The notes beneath the pieces are model-generated. The model saw only the letters and a program-made list of their open reading frames with translations, did no database searches and was not told the DNA's origin. Shown one piece after another: positions 13,340-56,214 of a stretch of 64,000 nt of DNA. The stretch is from a virus. Taxonomy: Duplodnaviria > Caudoviricetes. Position numbers and translations under genes: made by a program. The DNA is taken from positions 128,001-192,000 of IMG/VR virus record IMGVR_UViG_3300031555_003522. One strand, 5' to 3'. Position 1 is the first letter of the stretch. Each line of letters starts with the position of its first letter.

Positions 13340-16300
13340 GTGACTCTAATGATTAAAGGTAGAAATCCTGGAGACAATATAACATTGATGAATACAATGT
13401 TTGTTCAAGGGACTGATCCATCTGATGGTAAATTCCATCAAACGATGACATTGGTTTATAAAGATCTTGATAGTGGTCTTAAGCATGTAGAGGAGATCGA
13501 CGATCCTGATTATGAATATTTTATGATTCACCCAGATAAGAGGGTGGATTATAATAGATTATTTGTATCTAAAGACGATGTAGAACGTATTGTAGTTCCA
13601 TATGGATCTTTGGAAAAAGATATAGCTTTGAGGCTTGGATTTAAAGAATTCTATTACGATAATATTCGTACTGGTAATAAAGGTGAGAATAGAAAACTTC
13701 ATATCCATCCTGATCTATTTAATAGTGATATGAATATAGAGGATCACTATAAATTCAGATTTGACAAGATGTATAGAAATGAAACTTGCCCTATAACAAA
13801 AGCATTTTTTGATATTGAGGTTGATAGTATTAATATGATGGGAGACTTCCCAGAACCTGGTGAATGTCCTGTTAATGCTATAACTCTTATTTGCCAAGAT
13901 GTTCATCAAGTATATACATTCTTGTTGAGAACTAAATCCAATCCTCAGATTATTGAATTTGAAAAGCAAGTTAATGACGGCTCTATATTTCCAGAATTAA
14001 CTAATTTCGTTATAGAGGCCGTTGGTGGTCCTCAAGTAGCAGCATCATATGAGATTAATTTTAATTACAATTTCTTATTCTATGATGAAGAAGATGAGAT
14101 TAATCTTATTAAGGATTTATTTGTAGCCATTAATATTCATAAACCAGATTTTGCACTGGCATGGAATATGGGCTTCGACGTTCCGTATATTATTCAGAGA
14201 ATAATAAATCTTGGATATGATCCTTGTGACATAATGTGCCATCAGGATTTTAAACGCAAGATTGTAAAATATATGGTAGATGAGAGAATGAAAAATGAAT
14301 TGGCTGAACGAGGAGATTATGCGGCAATATCTTCTTATACTGTATATCTCGATCAGATGATCCAATTTGCGTCTCGACGTAAAGGACAAAGTAAGTTTTT
14401 ATCATTCTCATTGGATTACATCGGTGAGCATATTGCTGGTGTAAGAAAGCTTGACTATAAAGCTATAACCACGAATATTGCAGAGCTTCCTTATAAATCT
14501 TATAAGACCTTTGTATTCTATAATATAATCGACACCATAGTTCAGTATTGTATTGAGATGAAGACAAAGGATATAGATTATGTATTTGGTAAGGCTCTTT
14601 TAAATAATACAAGATATTCTAAAACCCATAGACAGACTGTTTATTTGACTAATAGAGCTGCTAAAGTTTTTGATGCACAGGGATTTATTATTGGTAATAA
14701 TGCTAATAAGTTTAATAGCAAACCGGATGAAAAATTCCCTGGAGCGTTTGTAGCAGATCCTGAAAAAGTTAATAATACTTCTCGAATGCAAATTTATGGG
14801 TTATTTATAAACTTATTTGACAATTGTGTGGATTTCGATTAAGCAATAGTCGCTTAATTCAGTAATGGATTAAGAAAACTCCCTTAATTGCTGGAAACTC
14901 TAGCAGAAGTGATATAATTGCTTCATCCATATATTATAAATATGGTGCTAGACAATCAGCAGCCAAGAAAAATTGTAAAGGAGACTTTTATCGTGAGAAG
15001 ATATGAGTTCGAAATCCCTATAGATATAATAGATCCATCTATTCTATTGAATGGGGAAAGATTTGAATATATAACAGAAGATATTGTTCCTGGGGTATAT
15101 CCATATTATATGGTATCGAATTGTGGCAGAGTATATCACAGGTATCTTCAATGTATAATGAAACAGGGTTTAGAAACGAGTGGTTATCTATTTATAACTT
15201 TAGCTACTTGTAATGGGCCAAAGATAATTCAAATGAATAGACTAGTCTTAATGACATTTGACCCTAATCCAAATTGCCATGAACTACAAGCAAACCATAA
15301 AGATGGTAATAAGCTTAACAATTATCTCTATAATTTAGAATGGGTAACAAGATCTGAAAATATTATTCATGCATATGAAACTAAACTTCATATACCAAAG
15401 AGCAGTATTTCAGAAGATCAAGCTATTCAAATAGTAGAATTACTAAAAACCAATCAATATCAGTGTAAAGAAATAGCTATTATGATGGGTATTAATGAAA
15501 ATATAGTAAATTCTATTAAGAAAAAAGAATCTTGGAAAAGATTAACTAGAGATTGCAATTTTGATGCTAGACAAGGAAAGTTATATACGGATAATGATGT
15601 TCGTATTTTATGCGAATATTTTCAAAATAATCCAAAATTAGAAGGTCTAGAATCTAAAGCTTATGTACTAGAAGCTTTGATATCTTGTGGATTTGATAAC
15701 CCACAAGATAAAGTAGATACGGCAAGAAAGATCTATTCTAAAAAACATTATACTAGAATTTCTAAAGATTACAATTTTTAAGGTTCAACGACTATCGAAA
15801 GGATAATATGAGAGAAATACTCATATGAATAACCGAGTAGAGTAGAGTTCTAGTGAACTCGAAATGGGGAGCGTCCTATAAACGGTAACAGAATATAGGA
15901 TGATGATATAGTCTAATCTATATGGTGACATATAGCAGCTTACAAGCGGTATAAGATTAACGACCTTATATGAATAAAAATGTTTGCTTCGCTATACCCA
16001 TCTTTGATCCGTCAGTTTAATATAGCAGCTAATACTATTATTGGTAAGCTGATGATTAATGACAAAGTTCATGACAAAGAAAATATTTCTGATATGGATA
16101 ACTGGACTAGAGCTGGTGCATTTATGGAAGATATTCAGTCTCAGCAGTGGCTAGAGTTTACTTCCAGATGGTTTGGACTGCCAGATTATACTGTTCTGTA
16201 TCATGAAGTAGAGAGATTCTTTACGCAGATTGCTAATGCGTATCTCGGTCTTAGGGTCTACGAAAGAGATGGAACTATAGAGCCTATCACATTTGATAAA

Positions 16301-16441
16301 GATGGTCTTATGTGTGAGCCTATTGTATTTGAAGATAACGAAAGAAGAGAGGTTATAGATACCTATATCCCTCAGAATCTAAATAAATGGATGGAGTGGA
16401 GAAATCATGCAATTATGTATCCGAACCAGCAATTTAAATAG
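13340..16441 (+). CDS. polB: Family B DNA polymerase, N-terminal part (3'-5' exonuclease plus motif A); exons 13340-14839 and 15983-16441, 652 aa spliced
   Basis: ExoI FFDIEVD, ExoII WNMGFDVPY, ExoIII YNIIDT, FPGAFV; splicing gives DFD|FASLYPS (motif A). Confidence 0.93.
14840..15982 (+). mobile_element. Group I intron in polB-N motif A, carrying an HNH ORF
   Basis: P1 cgaU/gucg with U-G at the splice site; aagcaa pairs with 3' exon ttgctt (P10); core aattgctggaa, aatcagcagccaag, gttcaacgacta, gatatagtct; terminal G at 15982. Confidence 0.92.
14993..15781 (+). CDS. Intron-encoded HNH homing endonuclease (NUMOD4/I-HmuI-like)
   Basis: YMVSNCGRV, GYLFITL, NRLVLMTF, NHKDGNKLNN..NLEWVTRSENIIHA; probable GTG start at 14993 after AAGGAG. 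Confidence 0.9.
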   Translation: MRRYEFEIPIDIIDPSILLNGERFEYITEDIVPGVYPYYMVSNCGRVYHRYLQCIMKQGLETSGYLFITLATCNGPKIIQMNRLVLMTFDPNPNCHELQANHKDGNKLNNYLYNLEWVTRSENIIHAYETKLHIPKSSISEDQAIQIVELLKTNQYQCKEIAIMMGINENIVNSIKKKESWKRLTRDCNFDARQGKLYTDNDVRILCEYFQNNPKLEGLESKAYVLEALISCGFDNPQDKVDTARKIYSKKHYTRISKDYNF

Positions 16442-35882: not shown

Positions 35883-38800
35883 TTAGAACTGAATCATATT
35901 TGTAGAATTATTATTAGAGCCACCTCTAAATATTCCGATAGATTCTATCGGGAAACCCTTCAGATTGTTATTAATGATTTCATCATAATTAACAAATGGA
36001 AGTATCCAAGCAGGAACTGGTTCATTTAGAGGAATAGCTATAGCATCTATTCCAGTAGCATACTCTTTCTGCTTCATAAGCTCCACAGCCTTTTCATATA
36101 CATAAGGATGAGACTCTCTAATTCTATCAATATTCTTAGGGGTTATATTAACTTTAGCAACATCGATAGAATTCCGAATACTCATATCCAATGCTTCTGT
36201 CCCAGGCTCATGAAGAGCATTATAAGCTTGAGATGCTACTATACCTTGAATTCTCATGGGATTTTCATATGCTGATAGAGATTTTACCTTAAGAGGCTTA
36301 AAGAATTTCTTCTCACCACTCTGAATAGATTGATATATTTTCTTTTCCTCTTTAGCCAAATCTCTAAGAACAACAATAGGATCTATAGATTCCACATTCA
36401 ATATATCTTCTGCAAGTATTCGCTTTAAGTCAGCCTGAATAGTTGGATTGACTGTAGACTTAACAAATACTTCCATGCCTTTTGCATCAATAGATTTTGC
36501 ATCAGGAACCTGGTTTCCTTCCTGAAGCTCAACCTTATATGCATAGTGTTTCTTTGCATGACTAGATAGAAGAACACGCTTGAATCGTTTATTACTTTAT
36601 ATCACTATAAAGACTAGACTATATCTTCATCTTAAATACTATTACCATATTTGAGATGCTCCCCATTTCGAACTCTATCAAGAGCCCTACTCTACTCGGT
36701 TATTCTCATAGATCTTTCTTCTATGATATCCTTTCGATAGTCGTTGAACCTTCCTCTATTGAGGCTTGGCTGCTGATTGTCTCAATGAGAGTTCCCAGCA
36801 ATTAAAGGAGATTCTACATAATGTCACCACTATGCAGCCCTATTCTTAAGGAATTCGTTCTTCATTGTAATTAGGCATGCACGCTCATTATCAGAGTGAG
36901 CATTTGTGCAGTATCTATCCATAAAATCATTCAAAAGAATACCTACACAATATGCAAGAATATTTATAATGGAATATCTTAATCCATCCTGAGGTATAAT
37001 TACCATTGGGTCAACTAATCTATCCATCTCAATCATATCATCATCAACAAAACTATATTCTGTAACCTTTCCAATTACAGGTTCTGTCTTTATTTCTCCA
37101 TCATCGATAAACGTAGCAGCATCTACATTTTGTGTCTTAATCTTCATAGGAATCTCACAACACATTTGTCTTACATACTGATACCATCCATCAAATGATA
37201 CAATTGCACTCGCTTTGTTCATATAGGATCGCAACTCCATACAGTTCTCTTATGAACTTCTATATGTTTCCATATAGGCCAGACTATATCATCACCCTAC
37301 TATGGGTGCCTCCCATTTCGATTTAAAAGGTCTTATTTGGACATCGCCTTACCCCATTATAAGCTTGGGCTCTACTCTACTAAGTTCATCTATAGATGCT
37401 TTTCGATAGTCGTTGAACGTTCCTCTGTGCGAGGATTCGCTGCTGATTGTCTTTTATAAATTAATAAGAAGATTTTCCAGCAATTAGAGAGGTTATCGAC
37501 GCATGTTTCCATGCAAAGGGACGTAAATATCTTCATCCGTGTCCTGAATAATACTGACAGATCTGACTAGAGAATCCATCTTAGCCAATCTATCAATAAT
37601 CTGCTTATTATAATATACATACTCATACAAGATATCTGTTAGAGCTTTAAGCGGCTCTATAATATTCTCTGGAGGCTCATTAGGATCCATAAATGGAGCA
37701 TCGAGACTCTGAAGTATGAATAGTATAGCTTGTGTGACAGGAGCGTTATCAATGAAATGATATAGATTATTCTTATAGAAGAGTCTATCGAGTTCATCTT
37801 GATTGAGCTTAGATAGAATTTCCCAAATTATATGCATTTCATCTTCACTAGGCACCCATCCATATCCAGTACTAGAAAGTAACTGGAAGAAGGTTTCTTC
37901 AATAGAAGCATGAATAGTAATAATACCATTACTATTGAAATGATGCTCTTCTGTAAGCACCGTATGAATAAATTCAACGAGTTCATTCATGGAACTCATT
38001 GGTACATTATTATTTAAGAAAGATTCTAGGAATAGCGCGGCAGCACTATTGCAAGATCTACCTTGAGTTGTAACACTGGAAGCAGTATAAAGATTATAGA
38101 AAATACAAGAATACTGCCCAGTAGCTCCATAAACAATATATTCAAGTGGTTCATTACTCCACCCAGTTCTCTTATGAACTTCTTTAGCTTTCACCAAAGT
38201 TTAGACTATATCTTCATCCATAAAGGATGTCCAGTACAGGATCTCATGATTTGAGACCTCTTAGTCGTTGAACCTTCCTATTTCTAGGCTCGGCTGCTGA
38301 TTGCCTATTGTACCATCCTTCTACTATTTCCATTTAGGCAAGAAGGCTTTAAGGTGTCCCAGCAATTCTCTGGATTTAATCGATACCATTACTGGTAAAG
38401 TGGACCTTAGTTAATCCATTCATCTGGAGCTTTAAAAATACCATCATTTTCATGATGGGTTAGACTATATCTTCATTCATTTAAGAATGGTCTCTGTTTC
38501 GAGCATTAAGCCCTACGTCTTTCGACTAGTCGTTGAACGTTCCTCTAAACAAGGCTTCGCTGCTGATTGTCCAATCTCTATATTTTCAAACATTCACGAT
38601 TACTCTTTCAAGTTGCGTTGTAGTTATAGAGCTCTAAGGAGTTTCCAGCAATTAAGAGACTTTAACGACACCAATGGATTTAATTTAGCGTCGATCTTAC
38701 GCAAGTACCTCATATCGCTATGAGGGCTAGACTATATCTTCATCTATATCTCTATTACCAAGATATAGATGCTCCCCATTTCGAGTTCACTAGAACTCTA

Positions 38801-39769
38801 CTCTACTCGGTTATTCTCATAGATCTTTCTTCTATGATATCCTTTCGATAGTCGTTGAACCTTTATAAATCAGAATCAGTAATACAGAATTTCATATTAG
38901 TTTTTTCTTTCACAACTATGGCTACAATCTGATATTCATCTCTGTATACTATTTCAAGATTAGAACCATCAGACTCTAATCTTATCACATTGATGCTTTT
39001 ATTCAATGCCGCTTTCTTTATTTCTCGAATAGCTTTATTGAATTTTCGATTACCTTTCTCTGTAAAGTAAGATATAGTACCATGAAGTATATCAAAAGGT
39101 CTTTCTAAATATCTATCAAAATACCATGATAATCTAAATGCTTCATCTTCATCGAAGATATCATCGAGACCAACAAGAATTCCAGTATGTGGTCTACTAC
39201 ACCCAGATTCATATTCATATCTATAATACACATATCTCACTTCCTTTCTGATTTATACTTGGCTGCTGATTGTCTCAGTGAGAGTTCCCAGCAATTAAAG
39301 GAGATTCTACATAATGTCACCACTATGCAGCCCTAAAATTAAGGAGTAGCTGAAGTAGATTATATTTCTCAAAATCTTCAGATCCTTTAGGATACTTGAA
39401 CATTTCTTTCTTCATAGCTTTTCTATCATTTATAAAGCCATCGATCATTCCATACAGTGGATTAGGAACAGTTCCGTGTCTCTTAAACAATACACCATAG
39501 GAAGTTATAATAGGTTCTTTATCCATGATATAGTTTGCCATATAACTCAAGGTAGAGTTGATTTGTTTGTGGGTATAGTTATTATCCACCACCACAGGAG
39601 TATCTTTAAAATGTTGCGAAATAGACCAATCTATTGCAGCAGATAATTCTCCCTCAGATAGTAGCGGGAAGTTAAAGTGCAGCATATCCATACATATTCG
39701 CTTGTATTCTGCTAGTGCTTTTACATCCGGATATGTCGCATATACTGTTCTATTCGTTATAAAACCCAT
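35883..39769 (-). CDS. polB: Family B DNA polymerase, C-terminal part (motifs B and C, thumb); exons 39769-39342, 38699-38687, 38420-38414, 38133-37535, 37210-36849, 36585-35883; 703 aa spliced
   Basis: Exon lengths 428+13+7+599+362+703 = 2112 nt, in frame; splicing rebuilds RKAMKK, LLQLLLKIDANGFYGATG (motif B), SVTTQGR, IQDTDS (motif C), MKNEFLF and KKHYA. Confidence 0.92.
36586..36848 (-). mobile_element. Group I intron 5 of polB-C (ORF-less, 263 nt)
   Basis: P1 ccU/ggg; gaat pairs with 3' exon attc; full set of core motifs; ends ...aaacG. Confidence 0.9.
37211..37534 (-). mobile_element. Group I intron 4 of polB-C in motif C (ORF-less, 324 nt)
   Basis: P1 ggaU|g / cgucc; core aatcagcagcgaa, gttcaacgacta, gatatagtct; splicing gives DTD|S. 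Confidence 0.9.
38134..38413 (-). mobile_element. Group I intron 3 of polB-C (ORF-less, 280 nt)
   Basis: P1 uggaU / gucca; core motifs; ends ...tattG; splicing gives T|TT (Phe). Confidence 0.87.
38414..38420 (-). other. 7-nt micro-exon AATGGAT (Asn-Gly-F|) of polB motif B
   Basis: Lies between the terminal G of intron 2 and P1 of intron 3; exactly complementary to the intron-2 guide atccatt. Confidence 0.85.
38421..38686 (-). mobile_element. Group I intron 2 of polB-C (ORF-less, 266 nt)
   Basis: P1 gacgcU|aa / uuggugu c; P10 atccatt; core motifs; ends ...agatG. Confidence 0.9.
38687..38699 (-). other. 13-nt micro-exon TAAGATCGACGCT (|L-K-I-D-A) of polB motif B
   Basis: Supplies the invariant motif-B Lys; flanked by the intron-1 terminal G and intron-2 P1. 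Confidence 0.87.
38700..39341 (-). mobile_element. Group I intron 1 of polB-C (642 nt) with an ORF in the P6 loop
   Basis: P1 ccU|uaa / uuaggg; P10 uuuua/uaaga; core nearly identical to intron 5. Confidence 0.9.
38863..39240 (-). CDS. Intron-encoded protein of unknown function (no homing-endonuclease motif)
   Basis: GTG start after GAAAGGAA; 125 aa; bracketed by the 12-bp stem tataaatcagaa/ttctgatttata. Confidence 0.7.
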   Translation of the reverse strand: MRYVYYRYEYESGCSRPHTGILVGLDDIFDEDEAFRLSWYFDRYLERPFDILHGTISYFTEKGNRKFNKAIREIKKAALNKSINVIRLESDGSNLEIVYRDEYQIVAIVVKEKTNMKFCITDSDL

Positions 39770-54861: not shown

Positions 54862-55336
54862 TGAGGATGAAGTAATCGTTGGTAAGCGATTGTTCTCTGC
54901 CGGATTCAATGATGATGGTTCTGTTAAACAAATTGATAGTACTGATGTTATTTATGAATCTTTTGAGGAAGCATTCGAGGACGTTAGTAATCCCCTTAAT
55001 ATTCTCTATGGTGGTATGACTGATGAGAGTGTATCTGATGAATTTAAGGGAATTATCACGTTTAAAAGGAGCGACAAAGATATTGACAATGTCGGGCATA
55101 GCATGATTCTTGATATCTATAAACATGGCAGAAAGAAAGCTCAATATTGCATCCTTCCTGTAGTTATTAATAAACTGCAGATAATTGCTTATAGAGGAAT
55201 GTTTATTCAGCCATTTGATATCGGTAAGTATCTTATTTGTAGGCGAGATCATAAAGAGCTCTCTGTGAAGAAGTCTCTTGATCTGGCATTTTCATTTATC
55301 GATACCTATCTGCTCATTAATCCGGAATGGCAATAA
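54848..55336 (+). CDS. Hypothetical early protein
   Basis: ATG at 54848 after AAGGAGG. Confidence 0.7.
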   Translation: MIQIDEDEVIVGKRLFSAGFNDDGSVKQIDSTDVIYESFEEAFEDVSNPLNILYGGMTDESVSDEFKGIITFKRSDKDIDNVGHSMILDIYKHGRKKAQYCILPVVINKLQIIAYRGMFIQPFDIGKYLICRRDHKELSVKKSLDLAFSFIDTYLLINPEWQ

Positions 55337-55376
55337 ATAAAGAGGGAGTCTTTCGACTCCCTCTTATTTTTTTTTT
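55335..55376. terminator. Bidirectional terminator
   Basis: agagggagtc / gactccctct with A and T flanks. Confidence 0.85.
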
Positions 55377-56214
55377 ACTTATTAGACATCGCTTTAGCCA
55401 TTTCTAAGCAGAAACCTTCAATTTCATTATGGATATGATTCTCCAGATTAACAACAAAAATGTCACCAGTCTTAGCAACAAGCTGCACTTTGCTACCACC
55501 GTCAATCAGGGTAGAAGATTCATACATAAAGTCAATCTGATTCAGTAAAGACTTAATATTTGCAGACTCGCTCTTAATGTAGGAAAGAACACTTTCATTT
55601 GTAATAGGAATCAATCTGCCATTATTATTTATACGCTCTATTTCAATCTCAGTACTAATAGTGCCAGACTCAGTGACTAATCTAGTGGTATAAGCATGAG
55701 GATGAGACGGGTAAATAACCCTATCCCATGTAATAACGCGCAGATTCTTAACGACATTACGACCATGAAGATTCTCTAAAGAACCAAGAGCTCTCAAAGA
55801 CCAGCTAGGCAGAACACCTTCGCGAAGATCCTGATCAAACTCTTCACCCTTTTCATTATTAGTGCCCTTGAACTGAGCCATGACATTATTACCATCCATC
55901 CAAATCTTGGTAAAGCGAGCAACAGTGTTATTAGGATCAATAGTCTGCTGACGCATCATAGAAGTGTCCATAGGATGGCCATTCTCAGACAGCATATTAC
56001 CAGTACTTAAGAGCTCAATAGTACGAGGACAGTTAATTTCTCTAAGCAGATCGGGCTGTAAATAACAGCGGCCGTTACGATTTTCTTCTTCTGCAGTCTG
56101 GATAATACCCTCTCCAAGAACTCTCTTGCCAGTATCGGAAATAACCTTAGCCTGGGGGATTTCAATAGGAGCACTTTCCAGAATGACAAAACCAATAGTT
56201 GGTTTATTAGACAT
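55375..56214 (-). CDS. Prohead protease (T4 gp21-like)
   Basis: NRNGRCY, ENGHP, SWSLRALGSL, ITWDRVIYPSHPHAY; AACA-N6-TA at 56244-56255 (-). Confidence 0.9.
   Translation of the reverse strand: MSNKPTIGFVILESAPIEIPQAKVISDTGKRVLGEGIIQTAEEENRNGRCYLQPDLLREINCPRTIELLSTGNMLSENGHPMDTSMMRQQTIDPNNTVARFTKIWMDGNNVMAQFKGTNNEKGEEFDQDLREGVLPSWSLRALGSLENLHGRNVVKNLRVITWDRVIYPSHPHAYTTRLVTESGTISTEIEIERINNNGRLIPITNESVLSYIKSESANIKSLLNQIDFMYESSTLIDGGSKVQLVAKTGDIFVVNLENHIHNEIEGFCLEMAKAMSNK

Follow-up and report, generated by a model that had tools for sequence, protein, structure and literature searches.

Three back-to-back group I introns separated by 13-nt and 7-nt micro-exons in motif B of a divergent phage DNA polymerase gene

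The stretch of DNA analysed here (the window) is 64,000 nucleotides (nt) long and corresponds to bases 128001-192000 of IMGVR_UViG_3300031555_003522, a 207,861-base pair (bp) IMG/VR virus record of an uncultured giant phage that is a metagenome assembly estimated to be 84% complete. At 39769-35883 on its minus strand, the window encodes a divergent family B DNA polymerase catalytic subunit of the AR9 g152 type (divDNApol). Translated searches (tblastn) match this region to proteins annotated as “DNA-polymerase catalytic subunit” of the Bacillus phages AR9 and PBS1, of Staphylococcus jumbo phages and of the Yersinia phage phiR1-37. The gene is divided into six exons (E1-E6) by five group I introns (I1-I5). 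Three of these introns lie back to back at 39341-38134, within motif B, exactly at the positions given in the original prediction, and I4 and I5 are found in addition to them. The whole record contains 13 matches to the Rfam group I intron model RF00028.

All exons and introns of the gene lie on the minus strand. E1 (39342-39769, 428 nt), identified from the open reading frame (ORF) listing, from tblastn to AR9 g152/PBS1 and from a gapless alignment to the homologous protein P0002, ends in ...CTC CT (CTACTCCT) at 39342. It is followed by I1 (38700-39341, 642 nt), a group I intron with an ORF inserted in its P6 loop, with a 5' splice site after a U that is paired to G, and with G as its last base. 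The first micro-exon, E2 (38687-38699), consists of only 13 nt, TAAGATCGACGCT, and encodes (L)KIDA, which aligns with the AR9 protein and matches the contiguous KIDA of two relatives (L009 and L016). I2 (38421-38686, 266 nt) is a group I intron without an ORF, also ending in G, and it is separated from I3 by the second micro-exon, E3 (38414-38420), the 7 nt AATGGAT, which encode N, G and the first base of the F codon. I3 (38134-38413, 280 nt) is again an ORF-less group I intron, and carries a hairpin tail after P9 before its end at ...TATATTG. E4 (37535-38133, 599 nt), identified from a match to the Pfam domain PF20286 and from alignments, begins with TTTATGGAGC at 38133 and reads from (F)YGATGQ... 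to ...IIQDTD. I4 (37211-37534, 324 nt, group I) splits motif C between DTD and S, and is followed by E5 (36849-37210, 362 nt), which was placed by alignment. I5 (36586-36848, 263 nt, group I) precedes the KKxY motif, with its 3' end following ...TAATAAACG, and E6 (35883-36585), of 703 nt including the stop codon, completes the gene.

Removal of all five introns gives a coding sequence (CDS) of 2112 nt, encoding 703 amino acids (aa). This predicted product aligns from residues 1-703 to residues 1-703, without gaps and at 91% identity, with the intronless homologs P0002 and P0003, each of which is exactly 703 aa long, and it is 77% identical to the protein of another intronless relative (L009/P0001). 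At the DNA level, identity to L016, the gene for P0002, is 84%. E6 matches PF20286 (divDNApol) with 39.7 bits, and with 55.4 bits when the genome is searched (cut-off 25.7), and E4 alone scores 21.6, below the cut-off; P0002, the 91% identical homolog, carries both PF00136 and PF20286. Motif B (KIDANGFYG) and motif C (QDTDS) are both present in the spliced protein, the I4 junction yielding IIQDTDSAIVSF, the same as in homologs. The AR9/PBS1 protein g152 (KU878088) is an end-to-end homolog at approximately 26% identity, annotated as one uninterrupted CDS of 1926 nt, whereas the gene described here is split by five introns.

A genome search of the 208-kilobase (kb) record finds this single divDNApol gene, and no family A polymerase was found in the same record; for these two reasons, the phage presumably needs the spliced product, and selection for accurate splicing is likely. 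It is conceivable that at least one of the crowded introns no longer splices and that the polymerase gene is a pseudogene or a defective variant, as the P1 helix of I1 is weak, and I2 and I3, which lack an endonuclease ORF, may be decaying. We consider this very unlikely, given that the 703-codon frame runs perfectly through all six exons, at 91% identity to intronless homologs and free of insertions or deletions, that all of the ribozyme cores score as full-length group I introns, that every guide fits the exon variants of this particular genome, and that this is the sole catalytic polymerase gene found in the record.

The N-terminal half of the polymerase is encoded by a separate gene, at 13340-16441 on the plus strand of the window, with a match to DNA_pol_B_exo1 at 13340-14839 and a weak PF00136 match covering motif A at 15980-16081. 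This gene too appears to be split by an intron, with an HNH_3/NUMOD4 endonuclease ORF at 14918-15781 and a sub-threshold RF00028 match at 15769-15935.

The architecture of motif B is very probably that of three independent, separately acquired self-splicing group I introns, situated at neighbouring homing sites within the polymerase gene, with the six exons being joined to encode the 703-aa protein. The group I identity of I2 and I3 is established directly by RF00028, with scores of 94.3 bits (E 5.6e-23) and 75.7 bits (E 2e-17), both over model positions 1-253 and above the Rfam gathering score of 50 bits; I4 (88.1 bits) and I5 (92.2 bits) also exceed this threshold. I1 has only partial matches of 36.6 and 22 bits, below the gathering score, because its P6 loop is split by the ORF-bearing insert of approximately 390 nt. 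With the insert removed, the I1 core is 91% identical to I5, and the differences between the two in the P8 and P9 stems are compensatory, so that the I5-like core identifies I1 as well.

Each of the three introns has the terminal omega-G (at 38700, 38421 and 38134 for I1, I2 and I3), each 5' splice site follows a U, and in each case P1 carries the terminal U-G wobble (CCU with GGG in I1, CGACGCU with GGUGUCG in I2 and UGGAU with GUCCA in I3). The P10 pairing is 6 bp long in I1 (including one G-U), 7 bp in I2 (9 bp once I3 is gone) and 4 bp in I3. Among the five introns of the gene, I5 can be described as an ORF-less paralog of I1, and is inserted in the same 5' exon context (TCCT before the splice site). 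The remaining pairwise identities among I1-I5, of 73-86%, mostly reflect the shared core and gap-tolerant scoring, and no claim of paralogy is drawn from them. A product of exon skipping from I1 to I5 (E1 joined to E6) would remain in frame and be 376 aa long.

Several lines of comparison bear on whether the micro-exons are genuine. The predicted junction peptide, LLKIDANGFYG, occurs without interruption and with the same residues in the intronless relative L009, which reads ...LLQLLLKIDANGFYGATGQ... at this point. KIDANGFYG is uninterrupted in both L009 and L016, AR9 g152 reads KLLANSFYG, and K-x3-N-x-x-Y-G is kept at the same columns in L016, L014, L004 and AR9. The motif B Lys and Asn thus fall on the 13-nt and the 7-nt exon, respectively, as had been proposed from the window's sequence. 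Also as proposed, leaving out E2, E3 or both shifts the frame, with premature stops at aa 181, 183 and 156, respectively. On the strength of these comparisons, the predicted 13-nt and 7-nt micro-exons are real exons.

Excision of the whole region as one unit, from the 5' site of I1 to the 3' site of I3, or as a twintron, with no micro-exon in the messenger RNA (mRNA), has a precedent of sorts in the exon skipping by adjacent group I introns that is documented for Twort orf142 and a SIOphi gene (PMC10136302, PMC11878797). We regard it as highly improbable here, as any such skipping runs into the stops given above and would delete the invariant Lys and Asn of motif B, which intronless homologs encode at exactly these positions. 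A nested, twintron-like organisation is also at odds with the coding content of the 13-nt and 7-nt spacers, which encode KIDA and NG as in the intronless homologs, and is contradicted by the occurrence of each intron alone at its own site in relatives. Skipped products may arise as by-products, but cannot be functional mRNA.

The splice sites of the three separate introns were chosen over a number of neighbouring candidates. A 5' site for I1 located 3 nt upstream, in the register that Rfam gives for I5, would cost one Leu in comparison with L009 and AR9, and the exon would then have no pairing. Placing the 3' site of I1 right after P9 results in an out-of-frame product without motif B, the equivalent site of I2 leads to a stop codon (GCT joined to TAT TTT TAA), and the other G positions near the end of I3 give TAA, TAG or TGA. 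For I5, a 3' site directly after P9 adds three residues (NKR) that are absent from all homologs, which read EFLFKR; the site adopted is 9 nt further downstream, after the tail TAATAAACG (compare TACTTGCG in I1), and gives a gapless alignment with P0002.

A group I intron selects its splice sites with a short guide sequence that pairs with both flanking exons, and the guides of I1-I3, all on the minus strand like the introns themselves, account for every base of the two micro-exons. In the guide of I1 (39331-39339), ATTTTA (39339-39334) forms P10 with the first 6 nt of E2 (TAAGAT), and GGG (39333-39331) pairs with the exon sequence CCT in P1; the A at 39334 also pairs with the first base of the intron, extending P1. 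A perfect P10 of TAAAAT with ATTTTA is found at this site in L015. The 5' end of I2 reads AAATTAA-ATCCATT-GGTGTCG, and its guide (38666-38681) comprises GGTGTCG (38672-38666), which pairs with the final 7 nt of E2 in P1, and ATCCATT (38679-38673), a perfect 7/7 complement to E3 and hence the P10 partner of the entire exon. In addition, the As at 38681 and 38680 pair with bases 1 and 2 of E4. The guide of I3 (38401-38405) is GTCCA, which forms P1 with TGGAT, the last 5 nt of E3. E2 is therefore wholly partitioned, with 6 nt going to P10 of I1 and 7 nt to P1 of I2, and E3 is claimed twice, all 7 nt by P10 of I2 and the last 5 nt by P1 of I3.

The P10 and P1 pairings of I2 and the P1 pairing of I3 covary among relatives. 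L020, L263 and L264 have AACGGAT as the exon and ATCCGTT as the I2-type guide, a P10 covariation that is driven by a synonymous Asn codon. P1 of I2 occurs as GATGCT with GGTATC (L020, L264) and as GACGCT with GGCGTC, and P1 of I3 is found as GGAT/GTCC, GGGT/GCTC, TGGGT/GCCCA and GGGT/GCCC. The proposal that E3 is the complete P10 partner of I2, and that its last 5 nt form P1 of I3, is thus borne out by complementarity and covariation alike. The two pairings overlap on E3 and are mutually exclusive, in agreement with the original prediction.

In the model that we favour, of three autonomous introns, the target is the coding sequence of K-x3-N-x-F-Y-G in motif B, which contains the three neighbouring homing sites, and each ribozyme would recognise its own splice sites through the guide at its 5' end. 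I1 would use CCU with GGG in P1 and, in P10, nucleotides 1-6 of the 13-nt exon; I2 would form P1 on the last 7 nt of the 13-nt exon and P10 on the entire 7-nt exon; and I3 would form P1 on the last 5 nt of the 7-nt exon. Excision of I1-I3, together with I4 and I5, would join the six exons and yield the 703-aa polymerase. From the sequence we infer that the introns are spliced in vivo.

The second step of I2 would use P10 with E3 and the first step of I3 would use P1 with E3, and since E3 cannot pair with both simultaneously, the two reactions would be sequential in any one molecule. If I2 is spliced first, E3 would be released and free to enter P1 of I3; if I3 is spliced first, the joined E3-E4 would be free to enter P10 of I2. 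The order is not fixed by the chemistry, and the I3-first and I2-first routes are both open. We mildly favour, and infer, that I3 is usually spliced first, because the local hairpin of P1 of I3 dominates the predicted ensemble and the guide of I2 fits the spliced E3-E4 better. When the unspliced E2-I2-E3-I3 RNA is modelled as a thermodynamic ensemble, pair probabilities are 0.68-0.85 for P1 of I3 and approximately 0 for P10 of I2, and the guide of I2 is complementary to 9 nt of the spliced E3-E4 junction (AATGGATTT), versus 8 nt of the unspliced E3-I3 junction. As predictions about order, these arguments from ensemble and guide match are weak.

The original prediction went further, in stating that splicing must be ordered; of this claim, the inability of the two pairings to coexist stands, and a fixed order does not follow from it, as both orders are open and a strict requirement for P10 is unsupported here. 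A hard-wired order, with the overlap of P10 of I2 and P1 of I3 forcing one intron out first in an interdependent cascade, would agree with the covariation-supported reality of that overlap, with a predicted precursor ensemble that keeps E3 in P1 of I3 and never in P10 of I2, and with the 9 bp versus 8 bp by which the I2 guide prefers the junction left by I3. It is nevertheless rather unlikely. Both sequences of events are chemically possible, P10 is described in reviews as an aid to the second step and not as its sole determinant (PMC3984707), the terminal G and P7ext/P9.0 also help to hold the 3' splice site in place (PMC10020454), and introns of the I2 and I3 types stand alone at these sites in relatives.

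An even tighter relay, in which E3 has to pass from P1 of I3 on to P10 of I2 and E2 serves as substrate for both the 3' site of I1 and the 5' site of I2, such that the correct mRNA would form only in the order I3, then I2, with I1 coupled, seems doubtful to us. If true, it would amount to a built-in delay, or to a gate sensitive to guanosine triphosphate (GTP), on DNA polymerase production, acting through exons shorter than any so far described between non-organellar group I introns.

The autonomy of the individual introns, on which our preferred interpretation depends, is supported by relatives with different intron loads, the loci of which were gathered by metagenome and assembly look-ups. 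No intron is present at the motif B sites of L009, L016, L014, L003-L008 and AR9. Single introns occur at site 1 (that of I1) in L015 and L023, at site 2 in L020, L263 and L264 (with L018, L019 and L021 being truncated), and at site 3 in L022. L017 has introns at sites 1 and 3, separated by a micro-exon of 20 nt that corresponds to the 13 + 7 nt of the window, unsplit. In L010, L011 and L013 an insertion 1 nt downstream of site 1 is combined with site 3, leaving a micro-exon of 19 nt, and in L012 an insertion 3 nt upstream of site 2 is combined with site 3, leaving one of 10 nt. Among the loci found, only the window is occupied at all of sites 1, 2 and 3, with micro-exons of 13 and 7 nt.

As each intron occurs alone elsewhere, each is best regarded as an autonomous ribozyme. 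Together, the window and its relatives display at least five distinct insertion points inside approximately 22 coding bases, and several of the relatives' introns contain HNH endonuclease ORFs (with a Pfam HNH_3 match in L022, and an HNH-like motif recognised by eye in L012). The varied insertion points and the HNH ORFs fit repeated homing into a conserved target.

The same relatives also bear on the quality of the assembly. Conserved intron cores are present in this genome, I1 and I5 are 91% identical, and contigs of relatives often break inside such introns (L018, L019, L021), so a short-read assembly could in principle have mis-joined similar cores into a false back-to-back order. This is exceedingly improbable, since exon order and frame are perfect, each junction has a P1/P10 guide matching its own flanking exon, I2 and I3 differ outside short cores, and the independently assembled L017 has the same layout of sites 1 and 3 with its 20-nt exon unsplit.

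Some observations do count against three autonomous, functional introns as the explanation for this locus. The source record is, as stated above, a metagenome assembly of estimated 84% completeness. The pattern scan of IMG/VR found no spliced or intronless copy of the exact spliced junction. P1 of I1 is very short, with three exon base pairs plus one. The preference for I3 first draws on a secondary-structure calculation, which takes no account of tertiary folding, of co-transcriptional kinetics or of proteins. Finally, part of the match between guides and exons could stem from flanking exon DNA that was co-converted during homing, and not from present function. In the same IMG/VR scan, the E3 junction pattern had no match, and two 14-base patterns from the tail of I2 hit approximately 240 loci, none of which has a group I core upstream; these are regarded as chance matches.

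Three separate introns crowded into one motif are an extreme form of a known phenomenon, as short exons and exon skipping have already been described in phage genes with several introns. In the Staphylococcus phage Twort, orf142 is reported to have three group I introns, a short exon of 23 nt between two similar introns, and exon-skipping products (Landthaler & Shub 1999, summarised in PMC10136302 and PMC11878797). The two systems are alike in that three self-splicing group I introns and one short internal exon occur in a single phage gene. They differ in that the Twort gene encodes a tail tube protein, whereas here the exons are of 13 and 7 nt in a polymerase gene, the three introns fall within a 20-base coding stretch of a single catalytic motif, and P10 of one intron and P1 of the next share the 7-nt exon in full. 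Exon skipping is also recorded for SIOphi, in a gene that the paper calls a terminase in its Results and a polymerase in its Discussion, and rNDPL of phiNIT1 has a small exon between two introns (both PMC11878797).

According to the same paper, DNA polymerase genes are preferred intron targets in Bastillevirinae and SPO1-type phages, some having two or three introns (PMC11878797). The presence of multiple group I introns in a phage DNA polymerase gene is therefore a shared feature, but the polymerases in question are Herelleviridae proteins of another family, and neither exon sizes nor overlapping guide pairings are described in the sections consulted. In 23S rRNA of Coxiella burnetii, two group I introns are separated by a 34-nt exon, with exon skipping (cited in PMC10136302). 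The likeness lies in the short exon between two group I introns; the gene is an rRNA gene and its introns are of different subgroups.

The closest parallels in exon length come from mitochondria, where exons of less than approximately 4 codons between self-splicing group I/II introns ‘occur regularly’, and exons of 3 bp and 1 nt have been reported (PMC10352661, PMC12308204). Gene-model software overlooks those mini-exons too (PMC10352661, PMC12308204); unlike the exons described here, they sit in organellar genes, the splicing of which is often protein-assisted. Intron-dense gut jumbo phages average 18.5 introns per genome (PMC12880540). Our literature search found no phage in which group I introns are described as separated by exons of 13 and 7 nt, no exon fully shared between P10 and P1 of adjacent introns, and no case of such P10/P1 sharing documented by covariation.

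As every base of both short exons is claimed by an adjoining ribozyme, and the 7-nt exon twice, the locus raises the question of how substrates can be shared or handed over without release or skipping. Relatives with zero, one, two or three introns at the same sites provide natural controls, making this a natural test case. It had also been suggested that ORF callers miss the structure entirely, and this is correct, as split genes of this kind are represented in public protein sets solely by fragments from E4 onward, which make up many of the family members of 547-582 aa. Gene callers thus fragment this essential polymerase, and the annotation of intron-dense jumbo phage genomes is systematically wrong at the most highly conserved motifs.

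Neither I2 nor I3 contains an ORF, for a homing endonuclease (of the HNH, GIY-YIG, LAGLIDADG or PD-(D/E)xK type) or otherwise. The ORF within I1 (38863-39231, minus strand) encodes 122 aa from a GTG start and belongs to an unassigned family. Its product is 51% identical (E 2e-33) to that of an ORF in the P6 loop of the I2-type intron of a relative (L263:2993-3319), from which it follows that the same ORF rides on two different ribozyme backbones. HMMER searches found 103 relatives (cluster representatives), which are small proteins of approximately 110 aa. There was no match to Pfam, to PDB sequences or to a solved fold, no known homing-endonuclease motif was seen, and matches to PHROG were marginal (E 0.02-0.03). 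An AlphaFold model built with 65 sequences reached a pLDDT of 91.9 (a model from three sequences was poor, with 52.5), and when the former was compared with PDB, Foldseek returned nothing at E <= 0.001 and the best VIA-align Z was 4.4. Judging from these searches, the protein could be a new kind of intron-borne protein. A different short conserved ORF, of approximately 55-70 aa (MKFIKSFIKKEE...CRFPTDPIEEDFYISQVLGI), is shared by introns inserted between GAT and AAR in three relatives (L011:2340-2520, L013:1550-1720 and L010:1-140), and resembles no endonuclease by eye.

The core of I2 (38559-38664 of the window, minus strand) is 83-84% identical over approximately 105 nt to introns of AR9, PBS1 and Internexus. 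The AR9 and PBS1 introns are annotated within a head protease/scaffold gene and the Internexus one within an RNA polymerase beta gene, and the matches suggest one intron lineage that has spread across genes and phages. Elsewhere in the genome, outside the window, five RF00028 matches are clustered in one gene at C1:54185-57443, including a back-to-back pair at 55109-55371 and 55391-55619 with about 19-21 nt between them. With this cluster as a second case, short exons recur in this phage.

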